A stretch of DNA of 50,003 bases from a virus (Duplodnaviria; Heunggongvirae; Uroviricota; Caudoviricetes): the IMG/VR virus record IMGVR_UViG_2609459850_000002; one strand, written 5' to 3'. Positions within the stretch are counted from its first letter, which is position 1. Each line of letters opens with the position of its first letter. Below are positions 48,001-50,003 of this stretch, one piece after another. The position numbers are program-made.

Positions 48001-50003
48001 GAAACGTCACTACCAAACGTTAATACGTCTGACGGGTGCTTTAATATTGGTGTTCTGCTCAGTAACAGGGATTTCACCGAGGATGCAATCAATATGAGAA
48101 AATATGAACCCTACCTGCTGAATGACAATTCCATACTCTCCAGAATTGCCCTTCTTAAACTCGGTATTTTCGGAGAGTGGCGATGAACACATTATTCGTA
48201 CTCATTCTGACTGTACATCTCAATACTGGTGAGTCGCTTGATGCAATCACCGGCATGTACAACTCAATGAAAGAATGCATGGCTGCCGCAGCGGAACAGA
48301 AAATTCCCGGCAACTGTTATCCGGTCGATAAAGTTATTCACATGGACAATAACGAAATCCCTGCAGGATTAAAAACAGCGCCGTAATTAATATCCAGTTT
48401 CATTTTTATATGCCAGCAATGGCAGGGATTTGTTCACCCTGAAATCTGTAATGAGGTTAAAACAAAATGAGTAAGGTCTTTATTTGCGCCGCTATTCCTG
48501 ACGAACTGGCAACAAGGGAAGAAGGCGCTGTGGCTGTAGCCACAGCCATTGAAGCTGGCGACGAACGCCGTGCTCGAGCAAAATTTCACTGGCAATTCCT
48601 GGAACATTATCCGGCTGCTCAGGACTGCGCTTATAAATTTATTGTCTGCGAGGATAAACCTGGCATACCCCGCCCTGCCCTCGATTCCTGGGATGCTGAA
48701 TATATGCAGGAAAACCGCTGGGATGAGGAATCCGCTTCCTTTGTCCCGGTTGAGACTGAATCAGATCCGATGAACGTCACTTTTGACAAGCTGGCCCCTG
48801 AAGTACAGAACGCTGTCATGGTTAAGTTCGACACATGTGAAAACATCACCGTTGATATGGTTATTAGCGCACAGGAATTGTTGCAGGAAGACATGGCAAC
48901 ATTCGACGGACATATCGTTGAAGCGTTGATGAAAATGCCAGATGTTAACGCCATGTATCCGGAGCTTAAGCTGCATGCCATCGGGTGGGTTAAGCATAAA
49001 TGTAAGCCTGGTGCCAAATGGCCCGAAATTCAGGCAGAGATGCGCATCTGGAAAAAACGTCGCGAAGGTGAACGCAAGGAAACCGGAAAATACACGTCTG
49101 TTGTTGATCTCGCCCGCGCCAGAGTCAATCAACAGCACACTGAAAATTCAACAGGAAAAATCAGCCCGGTCATTGCTGCCATTCATCGCGAATACAAGCA
49201 GACATGGAAAACACTGGATGACGAACTGGCCTATGCTCTCTGGCCTGGTGATGTGGATGCCGGAAACATTGACGGCAGCATCCATCGCTGGGCAAAAAAT
49301 GAAGTTATCGACAACGACCGCGAAGACTGGAAGCGTATCTCGGCATCAATGCGCAAACAGCCTGATGCCCTTCGCTACGACCGCCAGACTATTTTTGTCC
49401 TTGTCCGTGAACGTCCGATCGACATTCACAAAGACCCTGTGGCACTGAACAAATACATTACTGAATACCTGACTACAAAGGGCGTGTTTGAAGATGAAGG
49501 AAGAAATCAGAGCGCAACTGATACTCTCTCGTCGCCAGGGCTTTGTTGAATAAATCGAACTTTTGCTGAGTTGAAGGATCAGATCACGCATCTTCCCGAC
49601 AACGCAGACCGTTCCGTGGCAAAGCAAAAGTTCAAAATAACCAACTGGCCCACCTACAATAAAGCCCTCATCAACCGTGGCTCCATAACTTTCTGGCTGG
49701 ATGATGAAGCTATTCAGGCCTGGTATGAGTCAGCAACACCTTCTTCACGAGGCAGACCTCAGCGCTATTCTGACCTTGCCATCACGACTGTGCTGGTCAT
49801 TAAACGCGTATTCAGGCTGACCCTGCGCGCTGCGCAGGGCTTTATTGATTCCATTTTTTCTCTGATGAACGTTCCGCTACGCTGCCCGGATTACAGCTGT
49901 GTCAGCAGGCGGGCAAAGTCGGTTAATATCAGTTTCAAAACGCCCACCCGGGGTGAAATCGCACACCTGGTAATTGATTCCACCGGGCTGAAGGTCTTCG
50001 GTG

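Follow-up and report, generated by a model that had tools for sequence, protein, structure and literature searches.

IS903B interrupts a ydfE-type prophage exonuclease gene at the end of a draft contig from Escherichia coli 3-105-05_S4_C3

The window analysed here, a stretch of 50,003 bp, is the entire contig JNMD01000036.1 of the draft assembly GCA_000700065.1, obtained from E. coli 3-105-05_S4_C3. Towards its right end it carries dicB (47998-48186, plus strand; Pfam DicB, E = 1.3e-32) and a ydfD-type DUF1482 gene (48177-48386, plus strand; Pfam DUF1482, E = 2e-19), which lie directly upstream of the last complete ORF of the window. This ORF (48467-49549, plus strand; 360 codons and a stop) is a truncated exonuclease gene of the ydfE type, deposited as KDT53743.1, 'exonuclease family protein'. 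The same gene order is found in K-12 and in E. coli NCCP15648, and the placement of dicB and ydfD fixes the synteny with Qin. Further upstream, Rfam matches on the plus strand correspond to DicF (46899-46950), isrK (47184-47260) and C4 antisense RNA (47285-47372). A Rha-family gene directly follows the C4 antisense RNA, with its Pfam domain starting near 47430 and its end at 47987. A 284-codon ORF (47133-47987), which is one CDS in the annotation of relatives, overlaps both isrK and the C4 antisense RNA. The segment 46899-47987 looks like an isrK/C4/antirepressor module placed between dicF and dicB. In the related locus of NCCP15648 (L001), a partial duplicate of dicB is present ahead of the isrK/C4/Rha module.

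An intact allele of the exonuclease gene is present in NCCP15648 (L001:4568-7039), where a 2472-nt CDS annotated as 'exonuclease' comprises 823 codons (WP_117407337.1). Comparison with intact homologues had been proposed as a check in the sequence-only reading that preceded this analysis, and it delimits the native part of the gene to the base. Codons 1-357 and the first base of codon 358 (48467-49538, plus strand) show no mismatch over 1072 nt to L001:4568-5639, and identity ends at 49538. When the segment 47900-50003 was compared by megablast with 5,426 complete E. coli genomes, the matches ran unbroken to 49538 and then ended. At the junction, CTCTCGTCGCCAG is followed by TACCAGAAAC in the intact allele and by GGCTTTGTTG in the window. 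The loss of identity at 49538 places the insertion after the first base of codon 358, between 49538 and 49539. Codon 358 reads GGG, with its last two bases taken from the insertion element, codons 359 and 360 (CTT TGT) are entirely IS-derived, and the TGA stop (49547-49549, plus strand) is located inside the IS inverted repeat. Residue 357 is followed by a Gly-Leu-Cys (G-L-C) tail supplied by the element, as anticipated by the earlier claim that the inverted repeat provides the last codons and the stop of the ORF.

Residues 1-357 of the window product are identical to the intact 823-aa protein. The truncated product matches the PHROG family phrog_2082, 'exonuclease', over profile positions 1-357 of 823 (E = 4.7e-275), and precomputed Pfam assignments give YdfE_N and YdfE_C; a search of the 360-aa product against a local Pfam-A library found no family. 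The intact protein harbours a C-terminal Rv2179c-like DEDD 3'-5' exoribonuclease domain (Pfam, aa 642-813, E = 3e-63), which is absent from the 360-aa product, the insertion having separated it from the start codon. As compared to the 823-aa exonuclease of phrog_2082, the window copy is therefore devoid of residues 358-823, that is, of the rest of the RecE-like middle and of the DEDD domain. Loss of this domain should inactivate the enzyme, and the window copy is presumably a truncated, inactive member of the family, like K-12 ydfE. The correct label for the ORF would be an IS903B-disrupted pseudogene of a prophage exonuclease, rather than 'exonuclease family protein'. The intact exonuclease is itself of mosaic build: its residues 246-626 correspond to RecE/exonuclease VIII outside the catalytic part (NF007259 positions 271-603, E = 6.6e-84), and the C-terminus is the Rv2179c-like DEDD domain and not the RecE nuclease. 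In PHROGs, aa 1-257 and aa 295-823 of this protein each have a family of their own as well.

A second interrupted copy of the gene is found in K-12. The MG1655 annotation gives the order dicB-ydfD-ydfE; a feature 'insertion sequence:IS2E' overlaps the ydfE pseudogene (b1577), and the pseudogenes insD7 and intQ come next. K-12 ydfE differs from the window at 15 of 765 native nucleotides (98% nucleotide identity), and its translation shows 94% amino-acid identity, aligning up to residue 255-256 and continuing with IS-derived residues. The parallel with the IS-disrupted ydfE of Qin that had been drawn beforehand is thus confirmed: the same gene, at the same place after dicB-ydfD, persists as a 5' fragment whose C-terminal codons are given by an IS. 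The elements and sites differ, with IS2E (IS2, IS3 family) at about codon 255 in Qin and IS903B (IS5 family) at codon 357 here. Moreover, Qin is a cryptic prophage in which a fragment of IS2E adjoins a decayed intQ, whereas the window prophage is otherwise collinear with complete-looking relatives. Judged by these alignments, what remains of this gene in K-12 is a shorter 5' piece, interrupted by another IS at another site. The designation 'ydfE-like' is correct insofar as K-12 ydfE has its full-length counterpart in this gene, but it undersells the locus, since ydfE is a pseudogene fragment of the 823-aa exonuclease. In the papers found on ydfE, the gene is mentioned only as a pseudogene co-transcribed with dicB-ydfD.

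From position 49539 the window reads GGCTTTGTTGAATAAATCGAAC. The 18 bp at 49539-49556 (plus strand), GGCTTTGTTGAATAAATC, form the left terminal inverted repeat of IS903B; this 18-mer occurs once in the whole window and is identical to both ends of a complete copy at L002:4161-5217. That copy, which belongs to the chicken isolates Z1323CEC0004/0002, is 1057 bp long, with perfect 18-bp terminal inverted repeats GGCTTTGTTGAATAAATC and a flanking 9-bp direct repeat. The window holds the first 465 bp of the element (49539-50003, plus strand), which the contig end cuts, and these differ from the L002 copy at 3 of 465 positions (462/465 match). They are 100% identical to IS903B copies on enterobacterial plasmids, where at least 5000 plasmid records match; with the window segment 49538-50003 (466 bases) as query, the best identity is 100% over the full length, and at least 4103 records match at 99% identity or more. 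The reference annotation of the 100%-identical plasmid copies is 'IS5-like element IS903B family transposase'. The frame opening at 49541 encodes the transposase N-terminus, and the transposase gene itself is represented by its first 144 codons (49571-50003, plus strand), with a TTG start in the assembly call and an alternative GTG at 49616. Pfam assigns these 144 aa to DDE_Tnp_1_5 (E = 1.7e-39), and NCBIfam scores them as transpos_IS5_2 with 145.6 bits, above the cut-off of 140; the catalytic part is located beyond the contig end. By its terminal repeat and nucleotide identity, the element is IS903B (IS5 family, IS903 group; DDE transposase), although only 44% of it, the left end, is in the record. 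The initial assignment to the IS903 family can accordingly be sharpened to IS903B. A comparison of the segment with IS903-group inverted repeats had been set beforehand as the one able to overturn that assignment; the repeat matches, and the assignment stands.

The top plasmid matches start at the first base of the query, which would make the G at 49538 a base of the IS. This possibility was rejected because the intact allele has a G at this position, the complete IS903B starts with GGCTTTG, and the plasmid matches are sorted by coverage. The truncated ORF and the transposase ORF share a reading frame, and what separates them is only a TGA (49547-49549) followed by seven codons up to the TTG at 49571. 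This common frame is probably a coincidence, with a chance of one in three.

Draft assemblies are at their least reliable in repeats, and the junction lies close to a contig end of this kind; it could in principle be a chimera in which reads of an IS903B copy located elsewhere were misjoined to the prophage contig. However, the point at which homology is lost coincides with the first base of the terminal repeat. Transposition requires a break at this base, and a random misjoin would not. In addition, a product of precisely these 360 aa has been recorded both by NCBI and by Logan, on two contigs, the second of 10-20 kb. The exact break and the second record argue against a chimera, which we regard as extremely improbable. 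No match was obtained with a 41-mer across the left junction in the genome contig collection, nor with a 28-mer across it in the metagenome contig collection, and a 240-bp junction query found no place at 80% coverage or more in the 5,426 complete E. coli genomes. A literature search under the assembly accession of E. coli 3-105-05_S4_C3 found nothing.

The sequence-only reading had also suggested that the insertion may mark a degraded prophage end. As the window is a whole draft contig, its end inside the IS is an assembly break and not the end of the prophage. Draft assemblies typically break at repeats such as multi-copy IS, and the assembly probably broke at 50003 because IS903B occurs repeatedly in that genome. 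Over 25000-49538, a single uninterrupted match of 99.9% identity is obtained with the prophages of strains 700462 and NCCP15648, and the segment 1-25000 matches them at 99.7-99.8%. In NCCP15648 the order downstream is intact exonuclease, excisionase (xis), integrase (int) and an ompW fragment. With positions 1-49538 collinear with prophages that have an intact exo-xis-int region, the suggestion of a degraded end is not supported; the prophage is lambdoid and otherwise intact-looking, with no sign of decay in the window. At the left, the annotation of collinear relatives suggests that the contig end (1-1100) falls within a gene of the tail-fibre type, which recurs in lambdoid prophages. In that case, the contig would be broken by repeats at both ends, and the attachment sites would be located outside the window. 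More generally, a window ending in an IS may be just a draft contig broken at a repeat, and a sequence end should not be taken as a prophage boundary.

These observations are very probably explained by a simple and recent insertion of IS903B. The exonuclease gene of 823 codons, hit at codon 358, occupies the distal end of the early-left (dicB) operon. The element is placed between 49538 and 49539, its transposase gene co-directional with the operon. From general knowledge of IS903 and from the 9-bp duplication at the L002 copy, transposition is expected to have duplicated the 9 bp CGTCGCCAG, whose predicted first copy is at 49530-49538. Past the contig break would most likely follow the other 592 bp of the IS, the second CGTCGCCAG, the remainder of the gene, xis and int, an order matching that of the near-identical prophages. 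Under a simple insertion the predicted right junction reads GATTTATTCAACAAAGCC-CGTCGCCAG-TACCAGAAACTG, also given as GATTTATTCAACAAAGCC, CGTCGCCAG and TACCAGAAACTGATGCAG in succession. The recency of the event is supported by the 0/1072 differences to NCCP15648 together with the absence of the junction from the 5,426 complete genomes; with no divergence in the native bases, a recent simple insertion is the likeliest state.

Alternatively, the IS could be the edge of a larger event, such as a deletion that removed xis, int and the 3' part of the gene, an inversion between IS903B copies, or one arm of a composite transposon flanked by IS903B. There is a precedent in the same gene, the Qin ydfE of K-12 being followed by the IS2E fragment and then by the intQ pseudogene, and the contig stops before the other end of the IS. 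Some E. coli records carry many IS903B-like places (34, 28 and 18), but these are partial matches of 91-97% identity. On the other hand, no base of the native part differs from a prophage whose exo-xis-int region is intact, and the rest is collinear with it; this points to a very recent event, after which secondary rearrangements would have had little time to arise. We consider a larger event unlikely, and retain the simple insertion. An exact look-up of five predicted remainder products (in-frame GTG, TTG or ATG after the junction) found two on record, of 446 and 359 aa, the latter in ENA on a contig of 4,982 bp. The 446-aa product (Logan SRR388806_642, L007) was rejected as the 3' remainder: it comes from a frameshift-split allele without IS in another sample, and as an unrelated frameshift it says nothing on strain 3-105-05_S4_C3. 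At L007:581-3051 the exonuclease gene is split into overlapping ORFs of 383 and 446 aa, and no IS is present. The frameshift, real or a sequencing error, maps to about codon 380, not far from where IS903B sits in the window.

The premature stop and about 1 kb of IS would likely be polar on xis and int as transcribed from the early-left promoter, and such polarity could impair excision. A consensus promoter and terminator scan of the full IS903B gave sites no more numerous than in shuffled sequence, and we thus still only infer the polarity. If the insertion is polar on xis/int, the prophage could be excision-defective, which matters for the strain and involves no new principle. A more far-reaching proposal is that the N-terminal YdfE module works alone, so that truncations are tolerated or selected, and that lost read-through into xis/int might lock the prophage in place. 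Truncated forms are indeed seen at about aa 255 in K-12, at aa 357 in the window, in the frameshifted 383-aa ORF (SRR388806) and in the 257-position PHROG family phrog_5943. If this were true, the insertion would be a step of prophage domestication and not neutral damage; we consider it very improbable. The parts are all already known, namely IS903B, the prophage exonuclease with its ydfE remnant and the disruption of prophage genes by IS, and the record is public and annotated. What is new is only the insertion site and the recognition of the deposited 'exonuclease family protein' as an IS-truncated pseudogene. The insertion is routine and recent, and matters little beyond correct annotation.

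The early-left operon had been described beforehand as a recurrent IS target, and the operon or the exonuclease gene could be preferred or selected for insertion, either as a hot spot or because losing the exonuclease or excision functions is selected for. Independent events do exist. Besides IS2E in K-12 ydfE, IS1203 is located inside the exonuclease gene of RM9131 (NZ_CP028429.1), IS903B splits the adjacent dicB in the related chicken isolates Z1323CEC0004/0002 (L002:4161-5217), and IS5-family and IS21 elements are found upstream of dicB in Z0117EC0133. The IS903B copy splitting dicB is complete and flanked by the 9-bp duplication AAAATATGC. However, these cases have to be set against the abundance of the gene, which was matched at 10,236 places spread over 4,714 of the 5,426 complete E. 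coli genomes, with 3,533 genomes carrying a copy that covers at least 80% of it. When 60 records were drawn at regular intervals along the ranking, a single one of the approximately 55 non-K-12 records was IS-interrupted. An IS903-type element lies within joining distance of the region in only 3 genomes, and in none of them at this site, and the junction itself has 0 matches in the 5,426 genomes. Recurrent targeting is therefore not borne out, and a preferred or selected target appears improbable; IS insertions here are occasional and rare, in dispensable prophage DNA, with no demonstrated hot spot. The target sequence points the same way: the target motif published for IS903, with Hu & Derbyshire cited as the source, is WTTYA-N9-TRAAW, and the flanks TCTCT/TACCA match WTTYA/TRAAW at 6 of 10 positions, a poor fit.
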